A program made the position numbers and the translations under genes. Below are positions 1,681 through 59,586 of a stretch of DNA of 64,000 nt, in pieces (the stretch's first letter is position 1; each line of letters opens with the position of its first letter). The notes under the pieces are model-generated. The model was not told the DNA's origin, ran no database searches, and was given only the letters and a program-made list of their open reading frames with translations. Origin of the DNA: a virus; the IMG/VR virus record IMGVR_UViG_3300033149_003801, positions 1 to 64,000 of that record, one strand, 5' to 3'.

Positions 1681-1720
1681 TGAAAACTGTGTGAATGGAG
1701 AATCCTGGGGAGGTAAGACT

Positions 1721-25266: not shown

Positions 25267-25485
25267 TCACTTTGTTACGAGCCACCAGAGAAATACACCC
25301 AACGCAGGAAGCAAGCCTGCAGCAAATCCCCATACTCCAGCTTTAACTTGCAATCTGGCAATCTCTACGCAGATACGGTTCTGCTGCTCTGCCAATCGTT
25401 CATAGCACGTATTTAGCCGTTCTAGTTCACTGAGAACATGACGGCTCCATTCGTTCCATCCATCAGGAGACATTGGGATACCCAT
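25267..25485 (-). CDS. XhlA-like small membrane protein (coiled coil plus C-terminal TM); lysis-associated?
   Basis: LSELERLNTCYERLAEQQNRICVEIARLQ followed by TM GVWGFAAGLLPALGVFLWWLV. Confidence 0.5.
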   Translation of the reverse strand: MGIPMSPDGWNEWSRHVLSELERLNTCYERLAEQQNRICVEIARLQVKAGVWGFAAGLLPALGVFLWWLVTK

Positions 25486-25963
25486 CGCTGGCAGGCATAG
25501 TAATGCAGAGTTGCCAGCAGTCCTCTAGTGCAGTAGCTCCATGTGCCTCATGGGGAAGGAAATAACGCATACCTTGAGGAGCTAACTCTTTGTCCCCATT
25601 ATCAACATGGAGCAAAAGACGACCAGACACTACTAGTATCCATTCGCTCTCAGCGTGTTGATGCTTAGGATATCTTGCACCTGCGCTCATAAAAATTCGT
25701 TGAATTGCCAGCTCAGGTTGCCACCACAATCCAAAGCCTAGCGACGTACCTCCTTCTACTCTATGCTCAACAGCATGACTTGATGTAATTCCCTGTAGCG
25801 TAGTCAAAGCGAGCAAGTTAGGGAGATTATTGGTCATTTTCCTGAGTTTCTCTAGTGATTCACATGTACTATTTTTCACTGTATCACTATCGTTCTTAGT
25901 GGTAGCAGCAGCAGAGCTGCCGCAAAGACGCATATTTTTAGGTATCGCTATCTGTAGCACCAT
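25463..25963 (-). CDS. cupin-domain protein (start may be the internal ATG at 25837)
   Basis: KHQHAESEWILVVSGRLLLHVD.G...L..G....LPHEAHGA: cupin metal-site pattern. Confidence 0.6.
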   Translation of the reverse strand: MVLQIAIPKNMRLCGSSAAATTKNDSDTVKNSTCESLEKLRKMTNNLPNLLALTTLQGITSSHAVEHRVEGGTSLGFGLWWQPELAIQRIFMSAGARYPKHQHAESEWILVVSGRLLLHVDNGDKELAPQGMRYFLPHEAHGATALEDCWQLCITMPASDGYPNVS

Positions 25964-32699: not shown

Positions 32700-33742
32700 G
32701 ACACAGCCTCATAACCGAAAAACGTATTATTGAAAGTAGTTTTTGTCCAATCATCCCCCTGGGGGTTGTGTGCCAGCATTTGCTGATAATGACGATATGT
32801 TTCGTCTAGTGTTTTTGTTTCTCCTACGACTATAGAGCCATCAAGTGTCATGTAAGGGCGAATTTGTCCGGATCCAGCTACGGACAATTTGGCACGGGCA
32901 TTCCAAGAAACACAACCGTTGCGTATACCTGCAGCATAGGCCGGTAGCTTTTCAATGACATGTGCATCAACCTGTCCTACGGTGTCAGAAGCTACATATG
33001 TCGTATCATCGTCTGGCTCGCCATCATCAACGCGAGCCCAATTGCCATCAGGATAAGCACCAGCAGCAGGCACGGGAGTCCATTGCTCTAAGCCCGGAGG
33101 TGAAATAGGACGAAAACCTAAGATTTTTCCTGAACCACACCAGGCATTGTTCCCTCTGCCATCATCTACTGTATCATTGATTGCCACATCGTCTAAGTAG
33201 ATAGCTCTGAGATGCTGAGAATAAGGATATAGATACCAATATATTTGCTTGAAGTAAGTCCCCGTAGATTTTGTGTCTGCTGGGCCATAAGTAAACGCCA
33301 GCGCGCCATTTTTTCTGATCTCTACGAGGCCATCAGTATCATGGATCTTGATGTGGACTTCAATTCTTTCCCAAGATTCAGACCACCCAAGACTTCCTTG
33401 ACTCACACCAAGAATGTGTATCGCACCATTGTAATACCACTTGATAAGCTCTCCCCCAGCATCATCAAGGAACTTGACGTAACTACCGTGACTAATGTCG
33501 CCTGAGCGCTTTGTTAAAAATCGGATGTATACATCGGATGCTACACCCGCAGCACCAAGATCCAGTGTTATATAAGCCTTAGCATAAACATTATTGTCTG
33601 TATACAAATAGAGCCCTGCATTGGCAACAGAGCCAGTTAGATAGCCATAGTCATTGGAGATAACACAATCCCCCCAAAACGATCCAGGACTCAAAGAAGC
33701 AATGTCGAAGTGCTCAAATCCCGTTTGCCATATTCTAGCCAT
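32696..33742 (-). CDS. tail-module protein, paralog of 33745..34797
   Basis: Shared motifs YLDDVAINDT and DDGEPDDDTTYV. Confidence 0.65.
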   Translation of the reverse strand: MARIWQTGFEHFDIASLSPGSFWGDCVISNDYGYLTGSVANAGLYLYTDNNVYAKAYITLDLGAAGVASDVYIRFLTKRSGDISHGSYVKFLDDAGGELIKWYYNGAIHILGVSQGSLGWSESWERIEVHIKIHDTDGLVEIRKNGALAFTYGPADTKSTGTYFKQIYWYLYPYSQHLRAIYLDDVAINDTVDDGRGNNAWCGSGKILGFRPISPPGLEQWTPVPAAGAYPDGNWARVDDGEPDDDTTYVASDTVGQVDAHVIEKLPAYAAGIRNGCVSWNARAKLSVAGSGQIRPYMTLDGSIVVGETKTLDETYRHYQQMLAHNPQGDDWTKTTFNNTFFGYEAVS

Positions 33743-33744
33743 TA

Positions 33745-34797
33745 TTATGATCCCTCCCGAAAACCAAATCTGGAGTTGTTAATATCTTCTGCAGTCCAAA
33801 CACTATCTAATACTGGATTCTCATCCTCAATATGTTGAACACATTTATAATTAGTATCGCTTAGAGTAATGTTTGGTAATTCCTCCTCAAATACCCCATT
33901 ATGGTCAAAGAGCGGAGTCAGCTCCGTAACTCCAGGCATTGGAGTCTTTCCATATATCTCGAAGGCTACCGCCTTGACAATGGCCATTGAACTGATCCCA
34001 TGAACAGAGAGATCTTCCATATCATAGAGGTCCTTATCTAACACGTCGTCTGCTTGAACGTAGGTGGTATCGTCATCTGGAGGAACTTCATCAACGTCTT
34101 CATAGTTGTGCTCACCTGCTCCTGGAAAAGGATAGAACTGTTCACTTGATCCAGGACCATTTGGCCTAATCCAGTAGATTCCTCCCTCTCCAGGCCAGGA
34201 ATCATTGACACCGTTGTATGTATCATTGATTGCTATATCGTCATAATATACGTCACCTGCAATAGACGTCCCAAACATATTGCCGAAGGTCACTCTTCCC
34301 ACTGTGGGATCTGTTCCAAAATCCTGGCCCCAGGTCATCACGTCAGTAAGAGCTAGGTTAATCACCCCATCATACTTGACCGTTACCTTTCCATCGGGGT
34401 ACACATCAGACTGAGAGATGTCAACATAGATCTCTAAACGAAAGTACGATCCTGTAGGCATAGCACTGGCATTTCCAAGATTCGACCAAGCTGCTCCATC
34501 CCAGTAGTCTACATCACCGTCCTTGGTAATGTGAATATGCTTATTTCCTATGTCATCTTGTATTCCTAAAATTTCAGATGAATCTGAAATAGATCCGGAA
34601 ATGTAGACGTAGGCGCGGATATATATGTCTTGAGGTGGAGATTCCACTTGATGAAATGCCCAGTCATTACCATCTATCTCTAATGCATAGTCTCCAGTAC
34701 GTACATTAGCCGGAGTCGATGTCAATGCAGCACCAGAGTAGTCATCGAATATCGTTATAGATCCACTCTCCAAGCCGGTCATAAATACTCTGGACAT
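33745..34797 (-). CDS. tail-module protein, paralog of 32696..33742
   Basis: Shared motifs YYDDIAINDT and VDEVPPDDDTTYV. Confidence 0.65.
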   Translation of the reverse strand: MSRVFMTGLESGSITIFDDYSGAALTSTPANVRTGDYALEIDGNDWAFHQVESPPQDIYIRAYVYISGSISDSSEILGIQDDIGNKHIHITKDGDVDYWDGAAWSNLGNASAMPTGSYFRLEIYVDISQSDVYPDGKVTVKYDGVINLALTDVMTWGQDFGTDPTVGRVTFGNMFGTSIAGDVYYDDIAINDTYNGVNDSWPGEGGIYWIRPNGPGSSEQFYPFPGAGEHNYEDVDEVPPDDDTTYVQADDVLDKDLYDMEDLSVHGISSMAIVKAVAFEIYGKTPMPGVTELTPLFDHNGVFEEELPNITLSDTNYKCVQHIEDENPVLDSVWTAEDINNSRFGFREGS

Positions 34798-36630: not shown

Positions 36631-39600
36631 TTACACCATAGCATTAAGCATACCAAAATCCTCTAAAATTCCCGCTTCGGATCGTGCTTGTCCATATTGA
36701 GCGGTCAATTGGAATGTTGGCTGGCGCTCAAAATGATAATGGATAGTTGTATAGTTATTAGCTCCCCATAAGTATGGCTGTGTTTTACGCACAGCGGGTC
36801 CGACAAGCATAGAGTTAGCCATCTGTAGACGAGATTCATATATCTGATCGGTATCTATATTAGCTAGTTGGCTAGATAATTGCTTCTCTATCTGAGCAAG
36901 ATGTCTTGGTATCTCCTGATAAAGGTTAGAGAATCCTCTAGCCATTCCTAAGCTAATTCCAGATACAATAGCCTCACCAATAGGTACCATCTTCTTCGAT
37001 GGTGAGAAAGCAGATATTTCTTTCGCAGCCTGCTTGGGCAATAGTCCCAACTTACCCAAAAGATTGTCTCTAAAATCCTTCCAGCGCCTGTTTAGTCCTT
37101 CGATTAAGCCATCTATGAAAGAATCGACGATCTTTGTCGCCTCTGACGGAACGGTCTGCGTTACAGTTCTCCACAATCCCTTGAAGAATTCCGGGACCTT
37201 TTTCTCAATAAACTCATTGATACTATCTCCGGTCCGTGAAATAAAACCGTTGATTTTAGTTCCCAATTCGCCCTTACGTGAAAACCACCTATCTACGAAA
37301 TCATTGATCTGTTTAGAAACAGATCCATTTCTTCCAAGTGAATCCTTGATAGCATTGCTAATCGTACCACCCATTCCAAAAATCTCATCTATTTTAGCGT
37401 TAAGAGAGTTTATAGTCTGCTCAAACTTTGTGCCCAGATCAGTAGCTTTCTCGCCCAAACCGGCAATGGCACTATTTGCCTCGGTCAAACCAGGCAAGCG
37501 AATATCAATCTCCATTGATTCTATCTTTTCGCGCTTCTTTTTCAACTCTTCGAGTTGCTCTTTGATCAGCTCCGTCTGGTGCTGGATAATATTAGCTTGA
37601 CGGTCTAGGAGTTCTGCTCGATGCTGAGCAAATAGCTGCTCCTCTTCTAGCATCCTACGTCGCTGCGTGATAAGCAAGCGTTCCTCTACTTGTCTAGCCC
37701 TAGCTAATTCAAGCTCCTCCTGCTGAAATTGTACCTGTTCCTCATATAATGCTATCTGACGTTCTACGGCCTTTAAGTTTTTCTCTGCTGCCTCAAGCTG
37801 TGTTTGAGCGGCCTCTTTGAGTAGTTTGATACGTTCACGCTCATTGTCAATTTGTTCTTGCAGCTCATTTATTTCTTCCTGTCTGCGAGCAACTATGTCT
37901 TGCTGTACTGCAAGGCTACTTTTCAGTTCCAACAAATGACCAGAAGTACCACGCTTCAGGATCTTGTTGCGCAGCTCCTCCATAAAGATGTCATGTTGAA
38001 TAGCTTGCTGAACGTCTCGCTCTTGTGCCAAGAGTTCCTTTGCGAGAGCCAAGCGCTCTTTTAGCGCATCCAACTGTTTCTGTAAACGCTTTTCCTCCTC
38101 GTCTGAAATCTCTCGAAGGTCCTCAATCTCTCTTTGCAATAAGCGCTGTCGCCGACGTAAGGGAATGAGCGTTAATGTCGTTGCAGCTTCCACACGAGTT
38201 AGAGCGTCCATTAGGGGATATAGTGGCTTATCTAGCTCTAATGTCATTACCTGAAGAGCAAAAAAGCCATCAGAGATTCTATCTAGCTCTTTTTGAATGT
38301 CATACCTAGCGCGCTCAATACCCTTTGCCATCTTCTCCATGCTTTCAATTATCTTCTCTTTTGCAAAAATCACTGCATCAATAGAAGCTAAGCTTCTCTG
38401 CTTAAGCTCTTCATATGTTTTTTTCATAAGCCGCAGAATTCCTGCTACATCGGCGGGCTCCTCAGTAAGCTCTTCCTTGGCTTTCTTGGCGTTCATAACT
38501 ACCAAAGAAAGTCCTCCAACAATAAGGGCAATAGCCGCTGCAACAGGGTGCGCAAAGGCGAGCTTAAGGGCTCCGCCAAGCAGAGGCAAGAGTTGTTTGA
38601 GCAGTACAGCAGATCCAAGCACTCCGGCAAACGCCGTAGCAAGGCCGAGAATTTGAGCGATACCCTTTTTTATTTCTGGGGGCAATTCACGAATATTCGT
38701 AACCAGGTCGTTCAGGAGGCTAATGCCCTTTGTGATTGCCGGGAGTAGATATTCTCCGAGCTCCACTCCAAGGTTGTGTATATTAGCCTTGAGCAGATTG
38801 GATTGAGTGGTCACCGTATCTAAGGAATTTGCATAGGCTCCTGCAAACTGTGCTCCGCGCTGAACTATGTAGTTCCAAATAGCCAGTCTTCGTTCTGCTG
38901 TACTAAGATTCTCCGCAACCTTATCTACTGATGAAGCATATTGAGCAAAGATTTTCTCTGCAGATTCCCCAATATCCAGTCCACGCAATGTCGTAACACT
39001 CGCGTTAGCCATTGCGTCTGTTAGAGCTTCAAATACTTCTGTAGCATCTCTGTTTTGCTGTGTAGCAATGTCGTTGGCAATAGTTGCCAGTGTAACTGCC
39101 TTTTCGTAATCAACATTGGCTGCTGCTAGTTTTCCGACAGCTTTGTATGCTTGTTCTATGGTGTATCCCTGAGCTGTTATAGCCGCTTGTGTCTTTTTTA
39201 CCGCTTCCTCAGCAAGGCCAAGGTTCTTTGCTAGAGTTTCTGTTCCCCTAGAAACCCGTTGTTGATCTGCAGCCATCTTGACCATTCCGCCGAGGAACCT
39301 AGCAAGCTTTGCAGAGACAGTAAGAAGCACAGATCCAAGGAGAGTAAAAGCAACGGTTTGTCTTCGTGTTGCCTCTTCCTGAAGCAATTGAGCTCGCGCA
39401 GCCTTCTGAGCTCCCGATTCTAGGGACTTAAAATACTCCGTCTGCATAAAGGCAGCCCGTGCAACTGCAGATCTATGCTTTTCCATCGCTACCGTATATA
39501 ACTGCTGCTCACGGGAGAGATTCTTAAAGGTATCTGACTGCCTAAGAGCTTCCAGGTTCGCTTGGTTGACGGCATCCGCCCAGGCGAGAACCTCCACCTG

Positions 39601-39792
39601 TGCTTGGCTTTGTTGCTGAGTATAGGCCCTAGAATGTTCTAATGACGCTAGGGCAGCTGCTTCGGACTTACCACGGATTACATCCAGGGCACGTCCAAAG
39701 CGAAACATCTGACTGATTGATGCCGCTGCCCGAACGACGACTAGCTCAATTCCCGCCTGGGGAAACATCGACCCACCGAAACCTAAACCCAT
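36631..39792 (-). CDS. tape measure protein
   Basis: 1053 aa, long coiled-coil stretches. Internal hydrophobic block ILGLATAFAGVLGSAVLLKQLLPLLGG...VGGLSLVVM. Positioned after chaperone-like ORFs. Confidence 0.85.
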   Translation of the reverse strand: MGLGFGGSMFPQAGIELVVVRAAASISQMFRFGRALDVIRGKSEAAALASLEHSRAYTQQQSQAQVEVLAWADAVNQANLEALRQSDTFKNLSREQQLYTVAMEKHRSAVARAAFMQTEYFKSLESGAQKAARAQLLQEEATRRQTVAFTLLGSVLLTVSAKLARFLGGMVKMAADQQRVSRGTETLAKNLGLAEEAVKKTQAAITAQGYTIEQAYKAVGKLAAANVDYEKAVTLATIANDIATQQNRDATEVFEALTDAMANASVTTLRGLDIGESAEKIFAQYASSVDKVAENLSTAERRLAIWNYIVQRGAQFAGAYANSLDTVTTQSNLLKANIHNLGVELGEYLLPAITKGISLLNDLVTNIRELPPEIKKGIAQILGLATAFAGVLGSAVLLKQLLPLLGGALKLAFAHPVAAAIALIVGGLSLVVMNAKKAKEELTEEPADVAGILRLMKKTYEELKQRSLASIDAVIFAKEKIIESMEKMAKGIERARYDIQKELDRISDGFFALQVMTLELDKPLYPLMDALTRVEAATTLTLIPLRRRQRLLQREIEDLREISDEEEKRLQKQLDALKERLALAKELLAQERDVQQAIQHDIFMEELRNKILKRGTSGHLLELKSSLAVQQDIVARRQEEINELQEQIDNERERIKLLKEAAQTQLEAAEKNLKAVERQIALYEEQVQFQQEELELARARQVEERLLITQRRRMLEEEQLFAQHRAELLDRQANIIQHQTELIKEQLEELKKKREKIESMEIDIRLPGLTEANSAIAGLGEKATDLGTKFEQTINSLNAKIDEIFGMGGTISNAIKDSLGRNGSVSKQINDFVDRWFSRKGELGTKINGFISRTGDSINEFIEKKVPEFFKGLWRTVTQTVPSEATKIVDSFIDGLIEGLNRRWKDFRDNLLGKLGLLPKQAAKEISAFSPSKKMVPIGEAIVSGISLGMARGFSNLYQEIPRHLAQIEKQLSSQLANIDTDQIYESRLQMANSMLVGPAVRKTQPYLWGANNYTTIHYHFERQPTFQLTAQYGQARSEAGILEDFGMLNAMV

Positions 39793-40751: not shown

Positions 40752-42257
40752 TTATTGCCCTACAATCACAATGCCATCATCTGTATCCTTCAGTCCACCA
40801 GCGAACACAAAGTTCCCTGATGGACCGGCGGCTACAAAATTAAGTCTGTCATTGTCAGGAGTCGTAGTCTCCGTATCGGGCAATTGATACCAGGATTCCC
40901 CTCCAGCTAGAGTGCGGAAGATATATCCTTTGGAACCATCAGTAGCGGTCATAAAACCAAAGGGAGAGTCTTCATATCCCGCAAAGGAAATGCCATGCAC
41001 TTCTCCTTGACCAGAGAGCGAGAAAGTGATCTCTGTCCAATTGGATCCGCCATCCTTTGTGTAGTAAAGCCTCCCACCAGAAGTGCCAATGAGCCATACA
41101 TATTCAGTACGCATCCAAACGACATTGATGTCATTTACTGTTGGAGAATCACTTGAAAGATCCGACCAAGTTTCTCCACCATTAGACGTAACTACAATTG
41201 CTCCTGTAGCTCCTACTGCAACGAGATGCTTGCTATCAATTCCATGAATGTCAAGCAGATTTTGAACCGTAGCTGCTCCGGCGCTTTGAACACTTACTCC
41301 CTGTGATGGATTGGACGTAAAGTAGATGTATCCACCATCACCTACGATCCAAGTTTGAGTAGAGCTGCGTGACCAGATGGCATTTGGCCCATTTCCAGCG
41401 GAAAAGCCAGTTGTTACCTCTGTCCAAGCATCCAAATCATCCAGATCTGCAAGATGCATAGAACATGAATCATTAGACACAACGACAATGTTTGAGCCGA
41501 CTTTTGCCAAATCAGACGGCTGCTCATCTTCGCCAAGGGTATCAATATCGTAGTCTTCCCATGAGGTTCCACCATCTAAAGATCTATGTAGCTCTGCAGG
41601 AAGACCAGGAGAACCCGCTCCGGAGGACTTGGTTACGTGGAAGAGTCTGTTCTCTCCATCTGATTCATATCCGCATTCTCCACAGGAGAAATAGTCAGCA
41701 ATGATCCCTGCAACAACTTCTCTCGTGATGTCTGCAGCACCAGAATCCTCAGCGTCTTCAAGAGACAATCGGTCAATTTCCCAAAAGGATCTCGCCGTAA
41801 TGTCTCCAGTCAATAAAATCGTTGCTCGTCCTGCCTCGTCCAATGCCGTTTGCTCGTCTGATGAGCGGTTGGTAAACCTTGCTTTGTCATAAGCAAGTAT
41901 CTTCTCCCAACCTCTCGTAAAATCCTCTGGATCCTCACACTTTCCATAGTGCACCTGAATCTGCATAGGACATTTTAGACGAAGAATTGGATTGTCCAAA
42001 CCAAAGCGAGCAATCATACTAGTCGTAGGCAGACTACTCTCACCGGCAACTTCGTCAACATTTTCAAATTGATCGTACGCCAATCGTGATGGTATCTGAA
42101 CGCGACTAGGCTCTCCCTCAGCAATGGAAAATCCAGAGAGCCTTGCAAGTCCTTGATACTCTATTGCATGATGAGGATTCGCCCCCTTTTCTTGAAGAAA
42201 AACCCGACCGTGTCCAGTTTGAAAAATTCGTTCACTCATATTCGTTATTCCCTTCAA
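40752..42257 (-). CDS. BNR/Asp-box repeat beta-propeller protein in the major-tail-protein position
   Basis: Asp-box-like motifs SLDGGTSWED, SNGGETWSD, TKDGGSNWTE, LAGGESWYQ in the C-terminal ~300 aa. Gene order. Confidence 0.7.
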   Translation of the reverse strand: MKGITNMSERIFQTGHGRVFLQEKGANPHHAIEYQGLARLSGFSIAEGEPSRVQIPSRLAYDQFENVDEVAGESSLPTTSMIARFGLDNPILRLKCPMQIQVHYGKCEDPEDFTRGWEKILAYDKARFTNRSSDEQTALDEAGRATILLTGDITARSFWEIDRLSLEDAEDSGAADITREVVAGIIADYFSCGECGYESDGENRLFHVTKSSGAGSPGLPAELHRSLDGGTSWEDYDIDTLGEDEQPSDLAKVGSNIVVVSNDSCSMHLADLDDLDAWTEVTTGFSAGNGPNAIWSRSSTQTWIVGDGGYIYFTSNPSQGVSVQSAGAATVQNLLDIHGIDSKHLVAVGATGAIVVTSNGGETWSDLSSDSPTVNDINVVWMRTEYVWLIGTSGGRLYYTKDGGSNWTEITFSLSGQGEVHGISFAGYEDSPFGFMTATDGSKGYIFRTLAGGESWYQLPDTETTTPDNDRLNFVAAGPSGNFVFAGGLKDTDDGIVIVGQ

Positions 42258-43765: not shown

Positions 43766-46144
43766 TCAATGTCTCCTGGGCATTATGGAAACTCCCTTAT
43801 ACTTATTTGCAATGATCTTTAAGAGAGCGTTACTATCCTTGAGACTATCTTCGCGCCTCCGTCCTGTATTGTAACGATAAGCAAACAAAGGCTTCTTTAT
43901 GTGCTCTCCATAGAATCCATGCACCGCAAGATTTAGAATCAGATCCCAATCCTCCCATAAAGGGATGTTAGTGTCAAAACCACCAACTTCATCAAAGGCT
44001 GCTTTTGGCAATAAATTTGTTACAGCAAAGAGGGCCGCCCCAAGAAGTCTGTGAACATCCCATTCGGCAGCACTGTGAACCTTTCTATCTGGAAGAGACA
44101 CCCAATCTGTATATAGAATTCGAGGGTCCTCTTCTGGACACTGTGAAGCTACTTCCAAAGTAATATACAAAAAATCTCTATAAAGATAATCATCTGCATC
44201 TAGGAAACACAAGTATCGTCCTCTAGCTATGCTTGCCCCCAGGTTTCTTGCAGCGCTCACGTTATGCAAACAGTCGTTCCGCATCCAGCGAATCCAAGGA
44301 TAGGCTACTTTATAAGGTACAGATCCATAGTTCTCTATTCCACCCTCAGTTGTATCGTCAACGACGATAAGCTCCCAACGTGGGTCTGTCTGCGCTGCAA
44401 CTGATTCAATAGCATCTTGAAGAAATTTCTCATGTCCGTCTCCTACAGGTATTATTACACTAGCCTTAGGACAATCATAATTTCTCACAGGATGAGAGGG
44501 GTATTTTCTCTCTGGACTAATCGTAGCAGCGAAAGGTATCTCCCCTCCATATACACTAGGTAGCCAAGCTAACCAATCTGGTTCCTTTTTCCCCCGAACT
44601 GCCGCTGATGCACTGTTGTTATGTACACGATACTCATAGACAGTATGTCCCGTTGCTAATTTTGCATCATACCCAATCAAGGGAAACCTCGACCATAGCT
44701 CTGCATCCTCTGTAGGCGCAGTATGCTGACGATACCCTCCAGTTCTTAAGAAAGCTTCTCTGCGCATCATATTGCAAGCAGGAATACGATTTTTCCGCTT
44801 CAGTTGCTTTTTTGCCGAGAAGTCCTCTCCAGGCCAGTCACTTTGTGGAACAGTTACTGTGCCATCGGGACCCATAAGCGCAAGTTTGCCATAAACTATT
44901 CCAAGGGATCTATTGCGTAAGAGAGGATGAACAAGTTCCTCCATAAAATTTGGACATAGCCGATCATCTGCATCTAAAAAGGTAAGAAATGCCCCCCGTG
45001 CAGCCATCGCCCCGTTATTTCGTGCAGCAGCAACTCCGGAATTCTCTTGGGCAATTACTCTAAACCTTGGGTCGTTTCCAATAGTTTCACGTATTACATT
45101 CAGAGAGTCATCTGTTGATCCATCATCTACTACGATACACTCCCATTTATTATATGTTTGCTTGCGAACAGACTCAATTGCCTCACTTACCCACTGAGCA
45201 TAATTGTAACAAGGAATAATCACAGAGACGAGCCCCTCTGCTTCTTCTTCTGCTAAAACTACAGAATCCTTGTAACATTGGCGATACAGCTCCATTGCAG
45301 CTTTCCATGAGAAGTGAGACGCCTTTTTTCGTGTATTACTTCGTAGTCTGTCATAGTCTTCTATAACATTGTGAATAGCCTTAGCAGTACCCTCGAAATC
45401 TCCTGGGTCGACTAAAAAGCCATCTACGCCATCTTCGATAATGTCTCGAATAGCTCCCCAGGACCAACCAACTACAGGCAATCCGGCAGCCAGAGCCTCC
45501 AAGATTCCTATCCCAAAGGTCTCCTTTGTAGTAGCTAAGTATATTCCACAACTGTAGAGCATCTTCTTCATTTCAGCATGAGACACGGGCCCGGTAACTA
45601 CAACGTTATCTTGTACTTCCCCAAAAGTAGAAAGAAACTGAACATCCCTTGCAATCCGTGCGATCTCATTTACAGGTGTAGGATCGCACACATCTTCAGG
45701 ACGGTTCTTGTTCCACAAAACCACAGGGGGGGAGGTGTAGTCCTTTCGCTTCGGCCAAACTCTCAAGTCTATTCCATGTGGGATAACTCGCGGAAAGAAC
45801 CCCATATTCCTAGCGAATATCTCCCCTACCCATCGAGATGGAACAGTTACAATATGAGCCTGTCTTGCCCCTGCGATCACGCGACTATTTACTTCCCACA
45901 TCCAGCGATCAGCCTGTATTTCACCTGTTGGGTACAATCCGTGGCAGTGCAAAACATCTATCTGTCGTCTTCTACGAGTGTCATCTACAACGTGAACGGC
46001 ATAAACATCAGCATTGCTGAGATCATCTACAAATGTTACTCCAAGTTCTGGGAGTCTCTGGTACATCGTGTAGACTACTCTTGCAATTCCACTGTTCAGA
46101 TTGCTTTCAGACGGCTGCTTTGGATGCAAAAATACAGTAGTCAT
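43766..46144 (-). CDS. three-domain glycosyltransferase (GT4-like GT-B plus two GT2 GT-A modules)
   Basis: ETFGIGILEALAAGLPVVG...GVDGFLV; VSVIIPCYNYAQWVSEAIESV..QTY...VVDDGSTDDS...FLDADD; ASVIIPVGDG...AIESVAAQT...VVDD...FLDADDYL. Confidence 0.9.
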   Translation of the reverse strand: MTTVFLHPKQPSESNLNSGIARVVYTMYQRLPELGVTFVDDLSNADVYAVHVVDDTRRRRQIDVLHCHGLYPTGEIQADRWMWEVNSRVIAGARQAHIVTVPSRWVGEIFARNMGFFPRVIPHGIDLRVWPKRKDYTSPPVVLWNKNRPEDVCDPTPVNEIARIARDVQFLSTFGEVQDNVVVTGPVSHAEMKKMLYSCGIYLATTKETFGIGILEALAAGLPVVGWSWGAIRDIIEDGVDGFLVDPGDFEGTAKAIHNVIEDYDRLRSNTRKKASHFSWKAAMELYRQCYKDSVVLAEEEAEGLVSVIIPCYNYAQWVSEAIESVRKQTYNKWECIVVDDGSTDDSLNVIRETIGNDPRFRVIAQENSGVAAARNNGAMAARGAFLTFLDADDRLCPNFMEELVHPLLRNRSLGIVYGKLALMGPDGTVTVPQSDWPGEDFSAKKQLKRKNRIPACNMMRREAFLRTGGYRQHTAPTEDAELWSRFPLIGYDAKLATGHTVYEYRVHNNSASAAVRGKKEPDWLAWLPSVYGGEIPFAATISPERKYPSHPVRNYDCPKASVIIPVGDGHEKFLQDAIESVAAQTDPRWELIVVDDTTEGGIENYGSVPYKVAYPWIRWMRNDCLHNVSAARNLGASIARGRYLCFLDADDYLYRDFLYITLEVASQCPEEDPRILYTDWVSLPDRKVHSAAEWDVHRLLGAALFAVTNLLPKAAFDEVGGFDTNIPLWEDWDLILNLAVHGFYGEHIKKPLFAYRYNTGRRREDSLKDSNALLKIIANKYKGVSIMPRRH

Positions 46145-46145
46145 A

Positions 46146-46721
46146 TTACCTTTTCTTTATAGTTCTACGCCTGTTTGTGTATCTCAGTCGTTTCCATGCA
46201 AGAATATTGCTATCAATCACATCCTCTATTCCCAGAGTTAGCGTCTTATAGCCAAGTTCCTGAAGAATTTTTGGTCGTATCTCCGCAACGTGTGCCTCAA
46301 AAGGATTTCCCCGAACCTCCCCCTGTGGGTATCTTCCCCAAGGACTCCCAAGAACTACTGTTTTCTTCGTGATGCGCTCTATCTGCATCAAAGTTTCTGG
46401 AAGGTCACTCTCAGGAATATGTTCTGGACCGTGCCACCAAAAGACATAATCAAACATTCGATGACCCAGTTGAAGGATATCTACCTCTCGAATATCTCCC
46501 TGTATGATATGATGGATCATCTCTTTATGAGCAATCTCATCAATATACGGTTGCCAGATTTCTAAGACAGTAATTTCATTTCCAGCAGAGAAGAGCTCAT
46601 ACATATAGTGGTGCCTATTCTTATTTGCACCCACATATAGAACGCTTCCAGGACTCTCAAATAGTTCAGGAACGTTTTTTTGCAACTGTGGAAATCTACG
46701 TCGTATAAGTTCAGTAACCAC
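46146..46721 (-). CDS. Rossmann-fold methyltransferase-like protein
   Basis: VLYVGANKN...ITVLEI...FDYVFWWHGPEHI. The SAM motif I is atypical. Confidence 0.5.
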   Translation of the reverse strand: MVTELIRRRFPQLQKNVPELFESPGSVLYVGANKNRHHYMYELFSAGNEITVLEIWQPYIDEIAHKEMIHHIIQGDIREVDILQLGHRMFDYVFWWHGPEHIPESDLPETLMQIERITKKTVVLGSPWGRYPQGEVRGNPFEAHVAEIRPKILQELGYKTLTLGIEDVIDSNILAWKRLRYTNRRRTIKKR

Positions 46722-46735
46722 TTGTCTACCCTCAA

Positions 46736-47818
46736 CTAATATTCCGGTTCACAACGACCAATGCGCATATTCAAGGAGCATATTCTATCCCACCAGTATA
46801 TCGAAGGATTACGGGAAAACATTTCTTTCTGCCACAGCCTGTCTCCTGCTCTAGGAGCGCAAAAAGCATGAATGGTGTCCAAAAAGAATTCTCGCTTGAC
46901 ACAATAACAATTACACACTCTGTGGCCGTTTCCATGATCAAACTCATTTATATTCCAGTATTTCGGAGTTGGTACAACTTCCGTAACCCTCCATACCTTA
47001 AAAATGATAACGTCTGGTTGTCCCTTGAAAAAGTAAATGCTCTTTATTCCTGAAAGAAAATCTACTTTACATAAAGCATCATCATCGTCCAAAATCATAA
47101 CATACTCGCCACGAATCTGGTTAATGATTTTCTTGAAGGAACAGTTTGCTGCTTCCAACCCTATTCCATCGTCATCAACGATTAAAATGTGCTCATAATC
47201 CATATCTCCTTGCGCCTTAATTGATGCAATATTATACGCCAATTGACGTGGTCTACGGTACGTTCGCGTGATGAACGAGAGAAAAGGCTTTGGCTCCGCT
47301 GGTCCACCAGGCAATCTAAATATTTTTATTTGTCCCGTTGACGGCTGTTCAGAAAGATTCCCCTGTTGCCGAATAAAGTTGATGGCACTCTCGTACGCTA
47401 TGGAATGTGCCCTTACAATGATTTCCCCTCCAGGAAGCATCTGGTCAATCCACCAGGAGAGCTCCTTTGTTTGTGGCGGATTTTCGGACTCTCCGAAGAA
47501 CACGATGTTAGGATGAATATCTAGTACTTTATCTATTTCTCCTGGTGAGCACTGTATATGTACTGTAGCAGGAGAAGGAGTGACCCAGAATTTTTGCTTT
47601 CCAATTCCTAGTATTGTAGCCTCCGGGCATCCTGCTCGCAGTGCGTACAGAGATTCTCCGCGCTCTACTCCAACAGAGACAAATACGGGTAGCTCACGAG
47701 TGGGCCACACCCGTATAGACAGCGCATGATCTCTGATGCAAACCCTCTCATGTGTAGGAATTACCCCAGGAGCTTCTCGGAAGTCCGAAGTAGGGGCGAG
47801 ATCTGTTCCATAAACCAC
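46736..47818 (-). CDS. bifunctional methyltransferase-like / GT2 glycosyltransferase
   Basis: N-half VSVGVERGESLYALRAGCPEATILGIG...LPGGEIIV. C-half FITRTYRRPRQL...ILIVDDDG...ILDDDDAL. Confidence 0.7.
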   Translation of the reverse strand: MVYGTDLAPTSDFREAPGVIPTHERVCIRDHALSIRVWPTRELPVFVSVGVERGESLYALRAGCPEATILGIGKQKFWVTPSPATVHIQCSPGEIDKVLDIHPNIVFFGESENPPQTKELSWWIDQMLPGGEIIVRAHSIAYESAINFIRQQGNLSEQPSTGQIKIFRLPGGPAEPKPFLSFITRTYRRPRQLAYNIASIKAQGDMDYEHILIVDDDGIGLEAANCSFKKIINQIRGEYVMILDDDDALCKVDFLSGIKSIYFFKGQPDVIIFKVWRVTEVVPTPKYWNINEFDHGNGHRVCNCYCVKREFFLDTIHAFCAPRAGDRLWQKEMFSRNPSIYWWDRICSLNMRIGRCEPEY

Positions 47819-48519
47819 TGAAATGATCCTTTATCTATGTTTCCTTGAAAGCTAATATTTCTATAATTTAACACAGGCTGCGTTACACCCAGGAATTCTC
47901 CGATTTCTTTGCTCGCAATGCGAACTCTTGTCGATCCTTCGATTTCGGTTTGCCAAGGATCCTCTCCATGTTTAAGAAATCGGCGAAAGATCGCAGTTGT
48001 CCACATAGACGCCTGCTGTGAAAAGCTATATGGAGCGGTTTTATCAATATAACAGAAACGACTGTCATCAATGAATTGTTTTCCTTCAGGAGTGAATATT
48101 GCTGACAGCCTTATCATGTCGATCTCTGGAGAATTGATCAATTCCTGAGCCTTAGCAACTATCTTCTCATTTACATAATTTAGATAATAATCGTCTAGCC
48201 AAAGAAGAAGGTGTTCATCTGAGTATTCACTATCTAGGAAGTTAATGAGATTTGTTGCATAGTGCTTATCCTCTCCAAAATAGTAAACCTTGATTCCTTC
48301 TATGGGAATCTCCTTTTTTCCTGTCAGCACAACGATTTCGTAGGGACAACGTGGCCAGAACTTACGAACACAAAAGATGTTTCCAGGAATGAAATGACTA
48401 TATTTATCACAAGTTGGAATGATGATCTTCACTGCCCAGTACCCTCCTGATCCTTGCCGCTGGGGGCACATTCTATGTGCCCCCAGCCTCCCAACAAAAC
48501 TGTACAATGGGGGATTCAA
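47761..48519 (-). CDS. hypothetical protein of the glycosylation cassette (start probably GTG at 48432)
   Basis: KIIIPTCDKY... begins after the hairpin and CAGGAGGG. The upstream part of the ORF runs through the stem-loop. Confidence 0.5.
   Translation of the reverse strand: MNPPLYSFVGRLGAHRMCPQRQGSGGYWAVKIIIPTCDKYSHFIPGNIFCVRKFWPRCPYEIVVLTGKKEIPIEGIKVYYFGEDKHYATNLINFLDSEYSDEHLLLWLDDYYLNYVNEKIVAKAQELINSPEIDMIRLSAIFTPEGKQFIDDSRFCYIDKTAPYSFSQQASMWTTAIFRRFLKHGEDPWQTEIEGSTRVRIASKEIGEFLGVTQPVLNYRNISFQGNIDKGSFQWFMEQISPLLRTSEKLLG
48470..48496 (-). promoter_or_regulatory. perfect 12-bp stem-loop immediately after the major capsid gene
   Basis: CTGGGGGCACAT aga ATGTGCCCCCAG (- strand). No U-tract. 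Confidence 0.5.
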
Positions 48520-52908: not shown

Positions 52909-54262
52909 TTTTCATCCTTACTAGCTGCTTTTCTACGCGCTCAGCGGCTTCTTTAGTATCCATGATAGAACGAACAATGCGAACTATCTCTTCTTCCTCA
53001 TCTGTCTCGACTTCGACCTGCTCTGCCATCTCCTGCAGAAACGACTCTGGAGCATCTCCTTCAGCTACAGCTAACTTTAGCGCCTGTATTGGAGTCAACT
53101 CACCAGACGTGACCCGTAGTGCCCTCTCTCTCGCGCGTGCGTGAGCGAGCTCGACACGCTCCCGCTCAGCTGCAGGGTCTGTTGATGTAAACTGAAACTC
53201 GACAGTTTTTGGAAGGACATAGAAATTCATAGCATACTCAAACTGCTGAATGATGGCTCCAGGTCCTTTACCCCTAGATTTCGCAGACATCGACTCCACC
53301 TGTGAGGCAGTGCCTAAGTTCCCCCCTGGCAGTGGAGCAAACTCTGAATAATCAGTCCCAAATCCTATCGCCATCGTTGTAATATACCATTTATACAAGT
53401 CATCCTCATTATAACCATCTGGAAGTCCTGCGAGCTCGATAAGCTGCGCTTCCAACCTCTGCCCTGGATCGTTTCCAGAGATAACCACAGGGCCAGTATA
53501 GATCGTTCGACCCTGCGTCTGGATCTCTCTTTCAGAAGACATTTGAATAGCTTCCTCGATGGCACCATGACGAATTCCCTGAACGAACAAAACCGCAGGG
53601 ATACGTTTTCCAGAAAGCTTCTGTCGCTTATATAGCCCGATGTCCCGAATGATCTGTGCTGCACGAAGGACACGTGAAACAGCGCAAAAACCCCAATTTT
53701 TGTTTTCCTCGCGTGCAGAAGGCAAATCAACCATAGGAACTACTTCATACCAACGCAGTCTATGTATTCTTCCGGAGGAATCTTCGTAATTTACCGGCTG
53801 TTCAGGATTCCCAGTCTGCTCACATCGCTGAGAATCCAAATGGGCAATTCCAGACGCTGCAGATGCAGGACTAGCCCTTGAGGGACGCAAAATCTCAATA
53901 TATCCCCCATTGTCTTGTGTTAAGATGTCAAGAACGACCTTAGATATGAAAGTAAGCCAACCGTTGCCTAAATCAGCGCTTTGCAAAATTGTGTAATACC
54001 GATTGACAGCCTTCCTTGGACCACGCAACTTAAAATCTAGTGCCTTAAGTTTAGAACACATAGAATATATTGCCCCAGAAAGCATGGACTCCTGACGCCA
54101 AAAATTATCAAGAACGATATCTCTTGCTTTTCCAGGCCACGGAGGAATACCATCTGCCAAGTTTGCCATAAAGAAAACAAGAGGAGCTTCATGGGCCAAT
54201 GAAGTCTCCGCCCTATCCTGGACGGAAAGCTTAAGCTGTCTTTTAGGATCAGCTCCGGGCAT
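52898..54262 (-). CDS. portal protein
   Basis: 454 aa. Overlaps the terL stop. Acidic C-terminus. Canonical position. Confidence 0.8.
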   Translation of the reverse strand: MPGADPKRQLKLSVQDRAETSLAHEAPLVFFMANLADGIPPWPGKARDIVLDNFWRQESMLSGAIYSMCSKLKALDFKLRGPRKAVNRYYTILQSADLGNGWLTFISKVVLDILTQDNGGYIEILRPSRASPASAASGIAHLDSQRCEQTGNPEQPVNYEDSSGRIHRLRWYEVVPMVDLPSAREENKNWGFCAVSRVLRAAQIIRDIGLYKRQKLSGKRIPAVLFVQGIRHGAIEEAIQMSSEREIQTQGRTIYTGPVVISGNDPGQRLEAQLIELAGLPDGYNEDDLYKWYITTMAIGFGTDYSEFAPLPGGNLGTASQVESMSAKSRGKGPGAIIQQFEYAMNFYVLPKTVEFQFTSTDPAAERERVELAHARARERALRVTSGELTPIQALKLAVAEGDAPESFLQEMAEQVEVETDEEEEIVRIVRSIMDTKEAAERVEKQLVRMKNGR

Positions 54263-55685
54263 AAAGCCTCAACCTCCGTAACTCTGGATTTTCCTGTAAG
54301 ATCTGCTGGTTCATCTCGTGAACTTCCTGAACAAGGCCGTTCCAATGCTGTACGTACCAATCATGCGCGTCTGCAACAGCTACCTCAGAAGGCTCAGGAA
54401 GAACTATCCTAGACGCTACAGAATACTCATCCTTGCGCCCCCAAATTTCCTCTCGATCTTTCCCCCACAAGCCGTAGCGCAGGCAATCTGCCACATGATC
54501 ATTTTCCTTAATTACCTTTCCTGTAGTAGGATTTCTCGCATAGGAAGGAATCTCCTTACGTGAATATGTACATCGTGGATGAAAACGAACGTGCCCAACA
54601 TTATTTCCATCGCATATCCAAGAGGCGACCCGCTTAATCCCCTCCTCTACATCATGTGTTGCTCGTACAGTGTCTATGTCCTTTCTCCACAACCTAGAGA
54701 TAAACTCTGCTGCAGAGGAATCTACCAAGGCAACAGAGGGCTTTGCATAGCCTTTACTCAAGGCATTGTCAATTGAATCCTCTGCCAGTTCTCCCCTAGC
54801 AACATATTCATCAAAAACGTTAACGTAAGGAGGAATAATCTGGGCAAATAGGATTACTCTGGGATGATGTTCAGTAAACCCGTCATCTACCCACCACTCT
54901 ACAGGCACTCCATGATGATATTCTGCATCTTCCGTTATGTTTCTTCCCCCAACGCGAGAATCGAACATCTCCCAAACGACATCTTCCATCGTAACAAACT
55001 GCCCATGAAGTTCCTGTTGAGCCAGCCTACCAGAATACATACCCATGAGCATCTGATAATGAAAAGGATCTAGGTTATCTTTATTATCCTCTGTAGAAGA
55101 TGTAAAGAACTCTACGATTTTTCCTTTCCATCCCATTTCCTGCATAATCTTATGTGCAGCAGGATCAAATATAGCTCCAGAAAAGAGATCATAGAGCCAA
55201 TGATTCACCCCCGCAGGGGTAGTCGTAATCCAAAGCTGCGGGTTTTTCCCCACACGAATACGCCCAGCCAAGATGTCAAAGGCTTTCCTGGTTCGTTTTC
55301 TCGCTGCCTCGTCGAACCACGCCCAGTTTACATTTGGCCCAGCCCATCCAGATTCCTTCTCAATACCACCGTAGTAGACTACAGAACGAACTCCGTTAAT
55401 CTCAAAGATCAGCTGCTTCTTTTGTGTAAAAGGATGATCAAGATGGGCATTTATACAGTGGCTCATAGGAGCCCACTTCATAAACTCCGGAAAGGTAGAC
55501 TTAGACAATTGCGGAAAATCTGGAGCAACGATAATCCCATCTTCATTCTGTTGTATTTTTTGAATGGCCTTAATAGCTCCAGCAGCAGTCTTCCCTGAGC
55601 CAATACCGGCAATCAAACCTACATAGCGAGCACTACTAAGAAGAAAACGCTCCTGTGCTGGATGTGCTTTGAATATTTTAGGCAT
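54249..55685 (-). CDS. terL: terminase large subunit
   Basis: Walker A GIGSGKTAAG, Walker B AWFDEA, TTTPAG. C-terminal nuclease VDSS...DHVADCLRY. Confidence 0.95.
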   Translation of the reverse strand: MPKIFKAHPAQERFLLSSARYVGLIAGIGSGKTAAGAIKAIQKIQQNEDGIIVAPDFPQLSKSTFPEFMKWAPMSHCINAHLDHPFTQKKQLIFEINGVRSVVYYGGIEKESGWAGPNVNWAWFDEAARKRTRKAFDILAGRIRVGKNPQLWITTTPAGVNHWLYDLFSGAIFDPAAHKIMQEMGWKGKIVEFFTSSTEDNKDNLDPFHYQMLMGMYSGRLAQQELHGQFVTMEDVVWEMFDSRVGGRNITEDAEYHHGVPVEWWVDDGFTEHHPRVILFAQIIPPYVNVFDEYVARGELAEDSIDNALSKGYAKPSVALVDSSAAEFISRLWRKDIDTVRATHDVEEGIKRVASWICDGNNVGHVRFHPRCTYSRKEIPSYARNPTTGKVIKENDHVADCLRYGLWGKDREEIWGRKDEYSVASRIVLPEPSEVAVADAHDWYVQHWNGLVQEVHEMNQQILQENPELRRLRLYARS

Positions 55686-58551: not shown

Positions 58552-59478
58552 TCAAAGGCCATCCCTTGAGGAAGACAACGATGCAGATAAAATTCGGTTT
58601 TTAGCTAATTCACAATATTGATGGTCAATTTCTATACCTATTCCAATTCTATTTAGCATTGCTGCAGCAATCATGGTAGTACCGCTGCCAGCAAACGGGT
58701 CTAGTACAGTATCACCAATAAAACTGAAGAGCTTTATGCAACGGCGTGGCAATTCTATTGGAAATGGCGCCGGATGTCCTATCTTTTTCTTGCTTTCACC
58801 ACTAAATGTCCAGACTCCATTCGTCCAGTTCATAAACTCAGATTTGGTTATGTCTGACTTTCTGCTACCGCTTGTTTTGCGCCATCGCTTCTTGTACAGT
58901 ACAACGACAAGCTCAACAGGGGCAATCACGTAGGGAGCGGATGCACTCATCCAAGAACCCCAGGCTGTGCGACGCGAGATATTACCTTCGTTCCATATAA
59001 CCGTTGAATGATACTGAAAACCAACCTGTTTGGCGATTGTAGTAATATCAGCACCAACACTTTGTTGACCCCCCTTGTTTTTGTCCAGAGGAATGTTTAA
59101 GCAAAATCTCCCATCATCTTTCAGAAATTGAAAACATCTTGATAGCCAAGTGCGTGTAAACTCCAAGTAATCAGGATACGACATATCGTCCTGATGAGAG
59201 TTATATTTAATATCAACATTGTACGGTGGAGAAGTAACAATCAAGTCTATACTATTAGGGCTAATATCATCGGTAATAAGAATGTCATCATTGATTACAA
59301 CCACTTTGTCGTTTGAATAAAATACCTTTGTCGCTGTTCTCAATTGAAATGCTTCTCCACTATCCAGTACATTGACCTTTGTCTGTCTGTCCAACTGGCC
59401 TGCCAGCGCTGACAAGGTTGGAATTTCGATCTCCTTAGTAGGTCTTGATGCTGTCTGAAAATCCTCGTTACAAGACAT
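58552..59478 (-). CDS. beta-class amino DNA methyltransferase (SPPY motif IV; N4-C or N6-A)
   Basis: ATG at 59478 after CAGGAGGG. DLIVTSPPYN precedes DPFAGSGTTMIAA. Confidence 0.9.
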   Translation of the reverse strand: MSCNEDFQTASRPTKEIEIPTLSALAGQLDRQTKVNVLDSGEAFQLRTATKVFYSNDKVVVINDDILITDDISPNSIDLIVTSPPYNVDIKYNSHQDDMSYPDYLEFTRTWLSRCFQFLKDDGRFCLNIPLDKNKGGQQSVGADITTIAKQVGFQYHSTVIWNEGNISRRTAWGSWMSASAPYVIAPVELVVVLYKKRWRKTSGSRKSDITKSEFMNWTNGVWTFSGESKKKIGHPAPFPIELPRRCIKLFSFIGDTVLDPFAGSGTTMIAAAMLNRIGIGIEIDHQYCELAKNRILSASLSSSRDGL

Positions 59479-59586
59479 ATTGAGCCCTCCTGATCGTATC
59501 ACCGTAGACTACAGTCTCCACGTAAACTCTGATTTATGTGGTTAATACTAAGTTACTGGAGCTATAGCCTACAAGGATCTAACTGA

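Follow-up and report, generated by a model that had tools for sequence, protein, structure and literature searches.

The window analysed here is a 64,000-nt stretch of viral DNA (positions 1 to 64,000 of the IMG/VR record IMGVR_UViG_3300033149_003801). Four co-directional minus-strand open reading frames (ORFs), designated o252, o360, o191, and gt792 in the order of transcription, lie at 43766–48519 between the major capsid gene and the remaining virion genes, as an earlier reading of the letters alone (hereafter, the original prediction) had described. The four ORFs were taken there to be a cassette with at least four transferase domains, which could build a methylated oligosaccharide on virion proteins. 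Five glycosyltransferase (GT) domains were found in the present analysis, and a system for virion glycosylation is the best explanation of the cassette, one that we hold with moderate confidence.

Genes of the cassette and the capsid gene

The largest cassette protein, gt792 (792 aa), was found to hold a GT4 module and two GT2 modules in one chain, and the tri-domain reading of the original prediction was borne out by Pfam matches above the respective cut-offs. Glycos_transf_1 was matched at aa 176–275 (E = 2e-20, 73.3 bits against a cut-off of 26.4), Glyco_transf_4 at aa 64–127 (29.2 bits against 28.5), and Glycos_transf_2 by two stretches (E = 3e-56, 190.3 bits against 23.3), of which the best was at aa 307–465 and the second at approximately aa 560–750. 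The acidic catalytic motifs (E-x7-E and DxD), whose conservation had been left to be checked, were invariant in 12 homologues with 35–54% identity. NCBIfam yielded only a distant, sub-threshold likeness to polysaccharide glycosyltransferases. A single-protein scan of one genome per species (185,579 species) retrieved no homologue of gt792 from cellular genomes, which bears on the possibility, raised earlier, that homologues might sit only in host O-antigen or teichoic-acid loci. When gt792 was compared by tblastn with the deposited phage genomes of the collection released on 31 August 2025, only partial GT2 matches were obtained and none covered at least 80% of the protein; the cassette system thus appears to be carried by no deposited phage in that release.

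The first ORF of the cassette, o252, had been left unassigned as a protein of 252 aa. It is instead a 223-aa protein beginning at GTG 48432, where the gene call of the Joint Genome Institute (JGI) and all homologues begin; the longer reading from a TTG codon was rejected, as it would cross the hairpin described below and is used by no homologue. The AlphaFold2 (AF2) model was of high quality (predicted local distance difference test score, pLDDT, of 94.3; predicted template-modelling score, pTM, of 0.90), and Foldseek returned 289 PDB matches with E ≤ 1e-3, such as B4GALNT1, SpsA, a Leptospira glycosyltransferase, the fucosyltransferase WrtF, and TarS/TarP. The top matches were mostly glycosyltransferases, some nucleotidyltransferases of that fold class ranked lower, and the matches in BFVD were viral GT2 proteins. 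Four motifs (TCDKY, LDDY/LEDY, SxQAxxW, and PWxxE) marked the family, and D81 of LDDY/LEDY was invariant in 40 sequences. No match was found for o252 in Pfam, PHROGs, NCBIfam, or PDB sequences, profile search included, and the 304 family members had no Pfam domain and were named no more specifically than 'hypothetical protein'. Judging from the structural model, o252 is the fifth glycosyltransferase domain of the cassette and belongs to a family without any sequence model.

The next ORF, o360, overlaps o252 by 58 nt. It had been described as a methyltransferase-like half joined to a GT2-like half, of which the latter was upheld and the former proved to be diverged. The C-terminal half scored 22.5 bits against the Pfam GT2 model, just under the cut-off of 23.3, and the orthologue in the related locus L002 scored 26 bits. 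The profile of the C-domain family matched TarP best among PDB entries (6h1j, E = 4.5e-6) and also matched 3bcv, GalT1, TarS, and SpsA; a DDDD motif was invariant, and the 479 family representatives were mainly stand-alone domains of approximately 185 aa. The N-terminal half aligned over 154 columns with the Methyltransf_24-type domains encoded near the capsid gene in related phages (hhalign, 96.3%, E = 1.7e-9). Residues D62 and D106, which are invariant in Methyltransf_24-type domains, align with Gly or non-acidic residues in o360, and the Gly-rich S-adenosylmethionine (SAM) loop was not conserved within the clade; this half may therefore be a degenerate, non-catalytic relic. Its clade profile had no match in Pfam or PDB. 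As a single query for related loci, o360 retrieved nothing, and its homologues were reached by other routes.

The methyltransferase-like reading of o191 was sustained only marginally. The family profile matched the 'putative methyltransferase' 3cc8 in PDB (E = 1.8e-4) over motifs I–III, and Pfam Methyltransf_25 reached 18 bits, below the cut-off of 27. Residue E54 was invariant, the Gly-rich SAM loop GxGxG was reduced to VGA, and several of the 19 family members gave marginal Pfam methyltransferase matches (Methyltransf_25 in six). Three loci (L040, L042, and L055) encoded the domain in fusion with GT2, and one (L046) in fusion with an o360C-type GT-A domain; among 36 other viral loci, 15 had it next to glycosyltransferase or sugar genes. 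Its association with glycosyltransferases thus appears better supported than its identity as a class I methyltransferase, and on sequence comparison it is an uncharacterised family associated with glycosyltransferases. The o191-type domain was also widespread in otherwise unrelated viral contigs (L027–L062), where it stood by itself, was joined to GT2 or GT-A domains, or was joined to unidentified domains in ORFs of 380–890 aa. The stop codon of o191 (TAA) and the ATG of gt792 are 1 nt apart.

No hydrophobic segment was found in any cassette protein (maximum 19-residue Kyte–Doolittle value of 1.51), and no flippase, polymerase, or ligase family was matched among the proteins scanned. The cassette therefore shows no means of glycan export.

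The protein encoded directly upstream (483 aa) had no support from Pfam, PHROG, NCBIfam, or PDB sequences, and its assignment was made from structure. The AF2 model (pLDDT of 76.7, pTM of 0.73) gave 327 Foldseek matches in PDB with E ≤ 1e-3, and the top ones were all phage capsid proteins of the HK97 fold (Bas63, Sf14, SU10, HK97 itself, and the cyanophage Mic1). The gene is thus, by its modelled fold, that of the major capsid protein, in agreement with the original prediction. The family comprised 1222 metagenomic homologues, none annotated, and an alignment of 38 sequences was made; tblastn found no match to the capsid protein in the deposited phage collection. The C-terminal approximately 37 residues (aa 447–483) were conserved despite low pLDDT and predicted disorder and were rich in Ser, Thr, and Pro; Ser or Thr occupied position 447 in 89% of the sequences, and a Ser/Thr-rich stretch covered positions 467–478. 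This tail is a plausible candidate for the glycan acceptor. A scan of genome collections with the capsid profile retrieved only contigs that were short or of phage size, binned with unrelated taxa. The metagenome-assembled genomes holding such contigs (L019–L024) were assigned to Altiarchaeales, Methanothrix, Saccharibacteria, Paceibacterota, Anaerolineae, and Uhrbacteria. As the contigs were scattered over unrelated taxa and were mostly short or phage-sized, they are probably mis-binned phage contigs and unfit for host assignment.

Between the capsid gene and the GTG codon of o252 lies an 87-nt spacer with the perfect 12-bp stem-loop that had been noted in the original prediction (CUGGGGGCACAU/AUGUGCCCCCAG, 3-nt loop; 13 bp counting a flanking G–C pair). 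No U-run was present at the hairpin. It is followed by a ribosome-binding site, AGGAGGG (48442–48448), 9 nt ahead of GTG. The spacer folded at −39.5 kcal/mol (z = −2.94), and 3 of 200 shuffled sequences folded equally well. All 19 relatives checked had a hairpin of −15 to −36 kcal/mol after the capsid stop codon, of unrelated sequence and in some cases with a T-run. The hairpin is thus kept by position and not by sequence, and its presence in all the relatives checked argues for a conserved regulatory role, whether in attenuation or in stabilising the mRNA. Features of this sort are common after phage capsid genes.

The capsid-to-p401 slot in related phages

On the downstream side, the slot is closed by p401, a conserved neighbour of the virion module with no match in Pfam, PHROG, or PDB. 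Relatives found via the capsid protein encoded a full-length tri-domain homologue in this slot, and the length of the spacer varied. A scan of IMG/VR with a tri-domain enzyme profile yielded 115 candidates that were confirmed, and 78 loci were retained; GT4, GT2, and GT2 modules occurred within one ORF in 76 loci, all of them in phage contigs. The capsid family was encoded upstream within 10 kb in 55 of the 76 loci. Where no capsid gene was found, 13 loci had less than 6 kb of upstream sequence, and eight had at least 9.8 kb, in which the islands may be longer. A p401 homologue lay directly downstream of the tri-domain enzyme in 68 loci, and in six others without p401 there was no sequence at that place. 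Wherever the flanks sufficed, the enzyme lay between the capsid gene and p401. The complete four-gene order was repeated in three contigs (L002, L025, and L026), and a minimal version consisting of the capsid gene, tri-domain enzyme, o252 family, and p401 was found in L021. Two loci that at first seemed to have no tri-domain enzyme (L009 and L020) were found to contain long glycan islands running past the retrieved sequence, so that a glycan island occupied the slot in every relative with enough sequence.

The distance from the capsid gene to the enzyme ranged from 649 to 9322 nt (median 4267 nt). The contents of this island, identified with Pfam, were counted in the 55 loci having the capsid gene: small GT2 (26), o252-family GT-A (25), Methyltransf_24 (22, one with a sulfotransferase-like tail), DegT/DnrJ/EryC1 aminotransferase (20), other GT2 (16), NAD epimerase/dehydratase (8), GT10-like (7), o360C-type GT-A (6), o191-type (5), DNA methylases (5), Methyltransf_23-like class I methyltransferase (2), and a few FkbM methyltransferases. 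In IMG/VR, the o252 family was almost confined to the island and was often the first gene after the capsid gene.

The identity of the tri-domain enzyme tracked that of the capsid protein (enzyme/capsid pairs of 65/54, 59/52, 45/37, and 40/34%), which argues for vertical inheritance as a core gene. By these comparisons, the tri-domain enzyme is an ancient core gene of the head module of the lineage, and the intervening island is hypervariable.

The tri-domain enzymes of relatives were mostly 860–1100 aa long and continued with a CxxCG motif and a domain of approximately 70 residues, often followed by a Pro/Glu-rich linker. In at least 17 of the 76 relatives, the enzyme ended in a helix-hairpin-helix (HhH) domain, which was absent from the lineage of the window. 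In the window, the ORF after gt792 encodes p92, and alignment identified this protein as a detached homologue of the approximately 70-residue tail domain. The p92-type domain was fused to the enzyme in 59 of the 76 tri-domain ORFs and formed a separate downstream ORF in most of the others; it had no PDB or Pfam match. It appears to be a universal fourth module attached to the system. In one relative (L155:14329-18176), the enzyme itself was split into a GT4 ORF and a GT2+GT2 ORF; this split and the fission of p92 indicate that the modules can function as separate polypeptides.

Genome setting

The window represents most of a phage genome of approximately 71 kb, as an identical capsid protein is encoded on a JGI contig of 71,397 bp; approximately 7 kb of the source contig lies outside the window. 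The G+C content of the window was approximately 45%, and no tRNA genes were found in it. Megablast of the region against GenBank phages gave zero matches, and tblastn of two unassigned replication-arm ORFs gave no match or 'hypothetical protein' only. The plus-strand arm carries replication genes (AAA_24, a family A DNA polymerase, and an SNF2 helicase), and the minus-strand arm is a siphovirus virion module (Table 1). In the polymerase, a uracil-DNA-glycosylase-superfamily domain (aa 35–170) lies N-terminal to the 3'–5' exonuclease and polymerase domains.

The BNR protein of 501 aa, which is kept downstream of p401 in relatives, combines a C-terminal BNR/Ycf48-like beta-propeller with an N-terminal part of 320 residues containing an invariant CGxC motif. 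The N-terminal part matched nothing in PDB and Pfam searches, and the earlier placement of this Asp-box protein in the tail-tube slot is positional only.

Among the other genes of the window, the two tandem pentapeptide-repeat proteins of the early/replication arm gave strong Pfam matches (E = 3e-88 and 4e-84). Pentapeptide-repeat proteins, which can act as DNA mimics, abound in cyanobacteria, and the pair may be a host hint or have an anti-defence function. Together with the Ycf48-like BNR domain and a sub-threshold Kyano_Gp96 match, they are weak cyanobacterial hints. Two adjacent paralogues of the tail region matched phrog_2448, and a 1523-aa ORF with no Pfam match presumably encodes a fibre or host-recognition protein. 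Macro-domain, cupin-domain, and N6/N4 DNA methylase proteins are encoded outside the cassette.

Table 1. Positions of the cassette, its neighbours, and other features in the window (virion module in the order of transcription, followed by the remaining genes)
Feature	Position	Strand	Remarks
Large terminase	54249-55685	-	First in transcription order
Portal candidate, 454 aa		-	After terminase
224-aa and 756-aa proteins		-	Between portal candidate and capsid gene
Major capsid protein, 483 aa	48520..49971	-	HK97 fold (modelled)
RNA hairpin	48459..48487	-	In 87-nt spacer after capsid stop codon
o252, true length 223 aa	47761..48432	-	Predicted GT-A-fold glycosyltransferase
o360, 360 aa	46736..47818	-	aa 1-172 Methyltransf_24-like Rossmann; aa 176-360 GT-A/GT2-type
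o191, 191 aa	46146..46721	-	Weakly class-I-methyltransferase-like; invariant FWWHGPEH motif
gt792, 792 aa	43766-46144	-	GT4 + GT2 + GT2 in one chain
gt792 domain 1, aa 1-295	45260..46144	-	GT4/GT-B; invariant E208-x7-E216
gt792 domain 2, aa ~300-530	44555..45247	-	GT2/GT-A; DDGS and invariant D391-A-D393
gt792 domain 3, aa ~555-792 (stop codon included)	43766..44482	-	GT2/GT-A; invariant D649, D651, D652, W730-E-D-x-D734
p92, 92 aa	43466..43744	-	Detached homologue of enzyme tail domain; first gene after the four cassette ORFs
p401, 401 aa	42258..43463	-	After p92; closes island on downstream side
501-aa BNR/Asp-box protein	40752-42257	-	After p401; slot expected for tail tube gene
219-aa protein		-	After 501-aa protein
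Tape-measure candidate	36631-39792	-	
Dit and Sipho_Gp37-like protein		-	Dit after tape-measure candidate; Sipho_Gp37-like protein further on
phrog_2448 paralogues (two, ~350 aa)	33745-34797; 32696-33742	-	Tail region
1523-aa ORF	26557-31128	-	
Cupin-domain protein	25463-25963	-	
N6/N4 DNA methylase	58552-59502	-	
Macro-domain protein	1691-2155	+	
Pentapeptide-repeat proteins (two)	8430-9767; 9764-10783	+	Early/replication arm
Family A DNA polymerase	19778-22144	+	UDG-like domain

Proposed function and known systems

In the proposed mechanism, a large and uncultivated lineage of siphoviruses would have, as part of its head-morphogenesis module, a phage-encoded island for glycan assembly, and the cassette would be transcribed late, together with the capsid gene. 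The post-capsid hairpin would attenuate read-through or stabilise the capsid mRNA, so that fewer enzyme copies than capsid proteins would be made. Soluble cytoplasmic enzymes would use host nucleotide-sugars to build a multi-residue oligosaccharide directly on a virion protein; together they comprise a single GT-B domain and four of the GT-A type, as well as one or two methyltransferase-like domains, by which the sugars would be methylated. The tri-domain enzyme and the p92-like tail domain would form the conserved core, and the variable genes between the enzyme and the capsid gene would tailor the glycan phage by phage, like a serotype locus. The most likely acceptor would be the Ser/Thr/Pro-rich C-terminal tail of the capsid protein, and the 501-aa BNR protein would be the second candidate. 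The glycan could serve, for example, in shielding or in altered adsorption.

Virion glycosylation is preferred because the cassette has five glycosyltransferase domains with conserved catalytic motifs, because its capsid neighbour has the HK97 fold and its flanks hold terminase, tape-measure, Dit, and Sipho_Gp37 genes, and because its place in the morphogenesis module is fixed over deep divergence. The islands of relatives hold glycan-tailoring genes (epimerase, DegT, FkbM, Methyltransf_24, sulfotransferase-like, GT10, and GT2), the enzymes are soluble, with no export machinery identified and no cellular homologues found in the single-protein scan, and there are two precedents, in the Cluster O mycobacteriophages and in the three-domain enzymes of PBCV-1; these points favour the same explanation.

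Several points weigh against virion glycosylation. The acceptor is one that we infer, and the conserved position could reflect inherited gene order and not function. The slot also takes unrelated morons, namely C5 (L008) and N6/N4 (L007 and L017) DNA methylases and an RNase-H-like exonuclease, and the HhH domain that ends the enzyme in part of the relatives is typically a non-specific DNA binder. Lipid-linked polysaccharides are as a rule synthesised by enzymes of the GT2 and GT4 families, and GT-A enzymes nearest to TarP among solved structures also glycosylate phage DNA. The methyltransferase domains are weakly supported or degenerate. BLASTP of Shida gp33–36 (orthologues of Corndog gp35–38), which are enzymes of the Cluster O system, against all the cassette proteins gave only E > 0.1.

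The enzymes might instead modify precursors, lipid-linked or otherwise, of the lipopolysaccharide, exopolysaccharide, or cell-wall glycans of the host at the cytoplasmic face, altering the host surface in order, for example, to block superinfection or to keep progeny from being trapped on debris. We consider this unlikely. The NCBIfam models nearest to the GT2 and GT4 modules (TuaG, EpsD/E, WcaA, PglI, and PgaC) point toward envelope glycans, all of them far below the cut-offs; the PHROGs labels of similar families ('GtrB-like O-antigen conversion' and 'moron/AMG') and the usual reading of glycosyltransferase-rich regions in cyanomyophages and pelagimyophages point the same way, and a serotype-like variable island would suit an arms race at the cell surface. 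However, the cassette proteins have no hydrophobic segment and the scans run returned no GtrA/GtrC-type, Wzx/Wzy, or ligase match; the gene of the tri-domain enzyme belongs to the core of the head module, is inherited vertically, and is not an accessory gene near an integrase, and the single-protein scan gave no cellular homologue of the enzyme. There was no sign of lysogeny, the matches in genome collections being short or phage-sized contigs in unrelated bins, and late lytic expression would leave little time to remodel the surface. A further alternative, that the post-capsid spacer is a permissive insertion hot-spot without a single function, in which the enzyme glycosylates a small molecule, a host protein, or a free glycan, seems quite improbable. 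It would account for the highly variable island content, which includes DNA methylases and an exonuclease-like gene, for a hairpin or terminator directly upstream, as is typical of moron junctions, and for the presence of the o191 family in many unrelated viral contigs. Nevertheless, the tri-domain enzyme and the p92-like domain are universal in the slot and co-diverge with the capsid protein, the great majority of assignable island genes are carbohydrate-related, and the o252 GT-A family is almost confined to the island. An insertion hot-spot accounts for the morons but not for the universal core.

The glycan could also be destined for DNA, a target that the original prediction had left out of account, with a methylated oligosaccharide placed on a modified base of the phage genome to guard it against restriction or CRISPR just before packaging, and we regard this as improbable. 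It draws on the HhH domain at the C-terminus of the enzyme in relatives, on the DNA methylases that share the island in some of them, and on TarP as the best PDB match of the o360 C-domain; the Mom function of phage Mu is a precedent for late-expressed DNA modification. Known phage DNA hypermodification (T4 alpha/beta-GT and the C5-methyltransferase/5mYOX- or ThyS-associated GT-A/GT-B clusters; Pyle et al.) resembles the window cassette in its sequential glycosyltransferases with TarP-like GT-A folds, and some of those clusters contain a partner sugar epimerase, as do islands of relatives. Those clusters, however, adjoin 5mYOX/ThyS and replication genes, whereas the window cassette is placed between the capsid gene and connector genes, within the head module. 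No thymidylate-synthase-like hydroxymethylase (ThyS) or TET/JBP protein (5mYOX) was found among the Pfam-scanned ORFs of the window, which were nearly all those of at least 150 aa; three unassigned ORFs (of 268, 337, and 850 aa) and the approximately 7 kb of contig outside the window lie beyond this exclusion. The sole DNA methylase of the window is of the N6/N4 type and lies 10 kb from the cassette, the HhH domain is absent in the window lineage, and the FkbM methyltransferases, DegT aminotransferases, and sulfotransferase-like domains of the islands are typical of the tailoring of surface glycans. If DNA were the target after all, the cassette would represent a DNA-glycosylation pathway of a new class, one lacking the 5mYOX/ThyS partners that usually go with it.

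If virion glycosylation is correct, a whole lineage of environmental phages would have it as a core trait; the capsid family by itself exceeds 1,200 protein clusters. The variable locus could set the surface chemistry of the particle and thereby affect adsorption, aggregation, recognition by grazers or immune systems, and competition between phages. The locus would also supply new enzymes for glyco-engineering, namely the GT4-GT2-GT2 fusion, the unmodelled GT-A family, and the glycosyltransferase-associated FWWHGPEH domain. A more far-reaching proposal is offered only tentatively: virion glycosylation may be an obligatory, vertically inherited part of head morphogenesis in a large, global, uncultivated siphovirus lineage of non-actinobacteriophages, with a tri-domain core docked via the p92-like domain, a hypervariable 'capsid serotype' island that would vary the glycan between phages in the way of bacterial O-antigen loci, and the unmodelled GT-A family of o252.

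The statement in the original prediction that this architecture was not known as a described system was too strong, because glycosylation machinery in structural modules has been known since 2023 and chloroviruses have multi-domain glycosyltransferase/methyltransferase enzymes. Freeman et al. reportedly saw, in 2023, little evidence of virion glycosylation in phages other than those of actinobacteria, and the accounts of phage virion glycosylation found in the literature concerned mycobacteriophages only. What appears to be new is the occurrence in a lineage that is uncultivated and apparently not actinobacterial, and for which the deposited phage collection gave neither a relative of the capsid protein nor a full-length relative of the tri-domain enzyme, the fusion of GT4, GT2, and GT2 with a universal tail domain, the unmodelled GT-A family, the combination of a conserved core with a hypervariable island, and enzymes apparently dissimilar in sequence to the proven mycobacteriophage ones.

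The Gtr cassettes of O-antigen conversion share with the window cassette a phage-borne enzyme of the GT2 family, and PHROGs placed the GT2 domains of the cassette nearest to 'GtrB-like' families. However, Gtr systems consist of a membrane flippase, a membrane-anchored GtrB, and a polytopic GtrC encoded next to an integrase, whereas the window proteins are soluble and encoded in the virion module. The Gtr seroconversion model was rejected, as the cassette proteins have no hydrophobic (membrane-spanning) segments.

The trait of Che8-, Corndog-, and Myrna-type phages, glycosyltransferases and a methyltransferase within or beside structural genes, was found in the window. In the Cluster O mycobacteriophages (Corndog and Shida), the gene order is portal, O-methyltransferase, three glycosyltransferases, protease, and capsid, and the capsid and tail-tube subunits are glycosylated at their C-termini (Freeman et al. 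2023, as cited in PMC11600133 and PMC12363180). Both systems thus have four co-directional methyltransferase/glycosyltransferase genes inside a siphovirus head module. The slot differs, as the Cluster O genes lie from the portal to the protease and those of the window phage from the capsid gene to genes on the connector side. The Cluster O enzymes are single-domain proteins of 194–289 aa, whereas the window phage has a 792-aa tri-domain fusion and a bi-domain protein, and no similarity between the two sets was detectable at the sequence level (BLAST E > 0.1). Cluster O phages have an actinobacterial host and high G+C content, in contrast to approximately 45% in the window phage. Glycosylation is proven in Cluster O and is proposed for the window system, and the hypervariable, lineage-wide island and universal p92-like tail domain of the window lineage are unlike Cluster O.

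The multi-domain arrangement has its closest counterpart in PBCV-1, in which A064R (two glycosyltransferase domains and a methyltransferase) and A111/114R (three glycosyltransferase domains) build the capsid glycans (PMC7826918). PBCV-1 differs in that it is a giant virus with a eukaryotic host, has a double-jelly-roll capsid and atypical N-linked glycans, and carries the enzyme genes outside any capsid operon. In both cases, the virus encodes soluble multi-domain chains with several transferase activities, one chain in PBCV-1 including a sugar O-methyltransferase, and these chains act, or in the window phage would act, in the cytoplasm.

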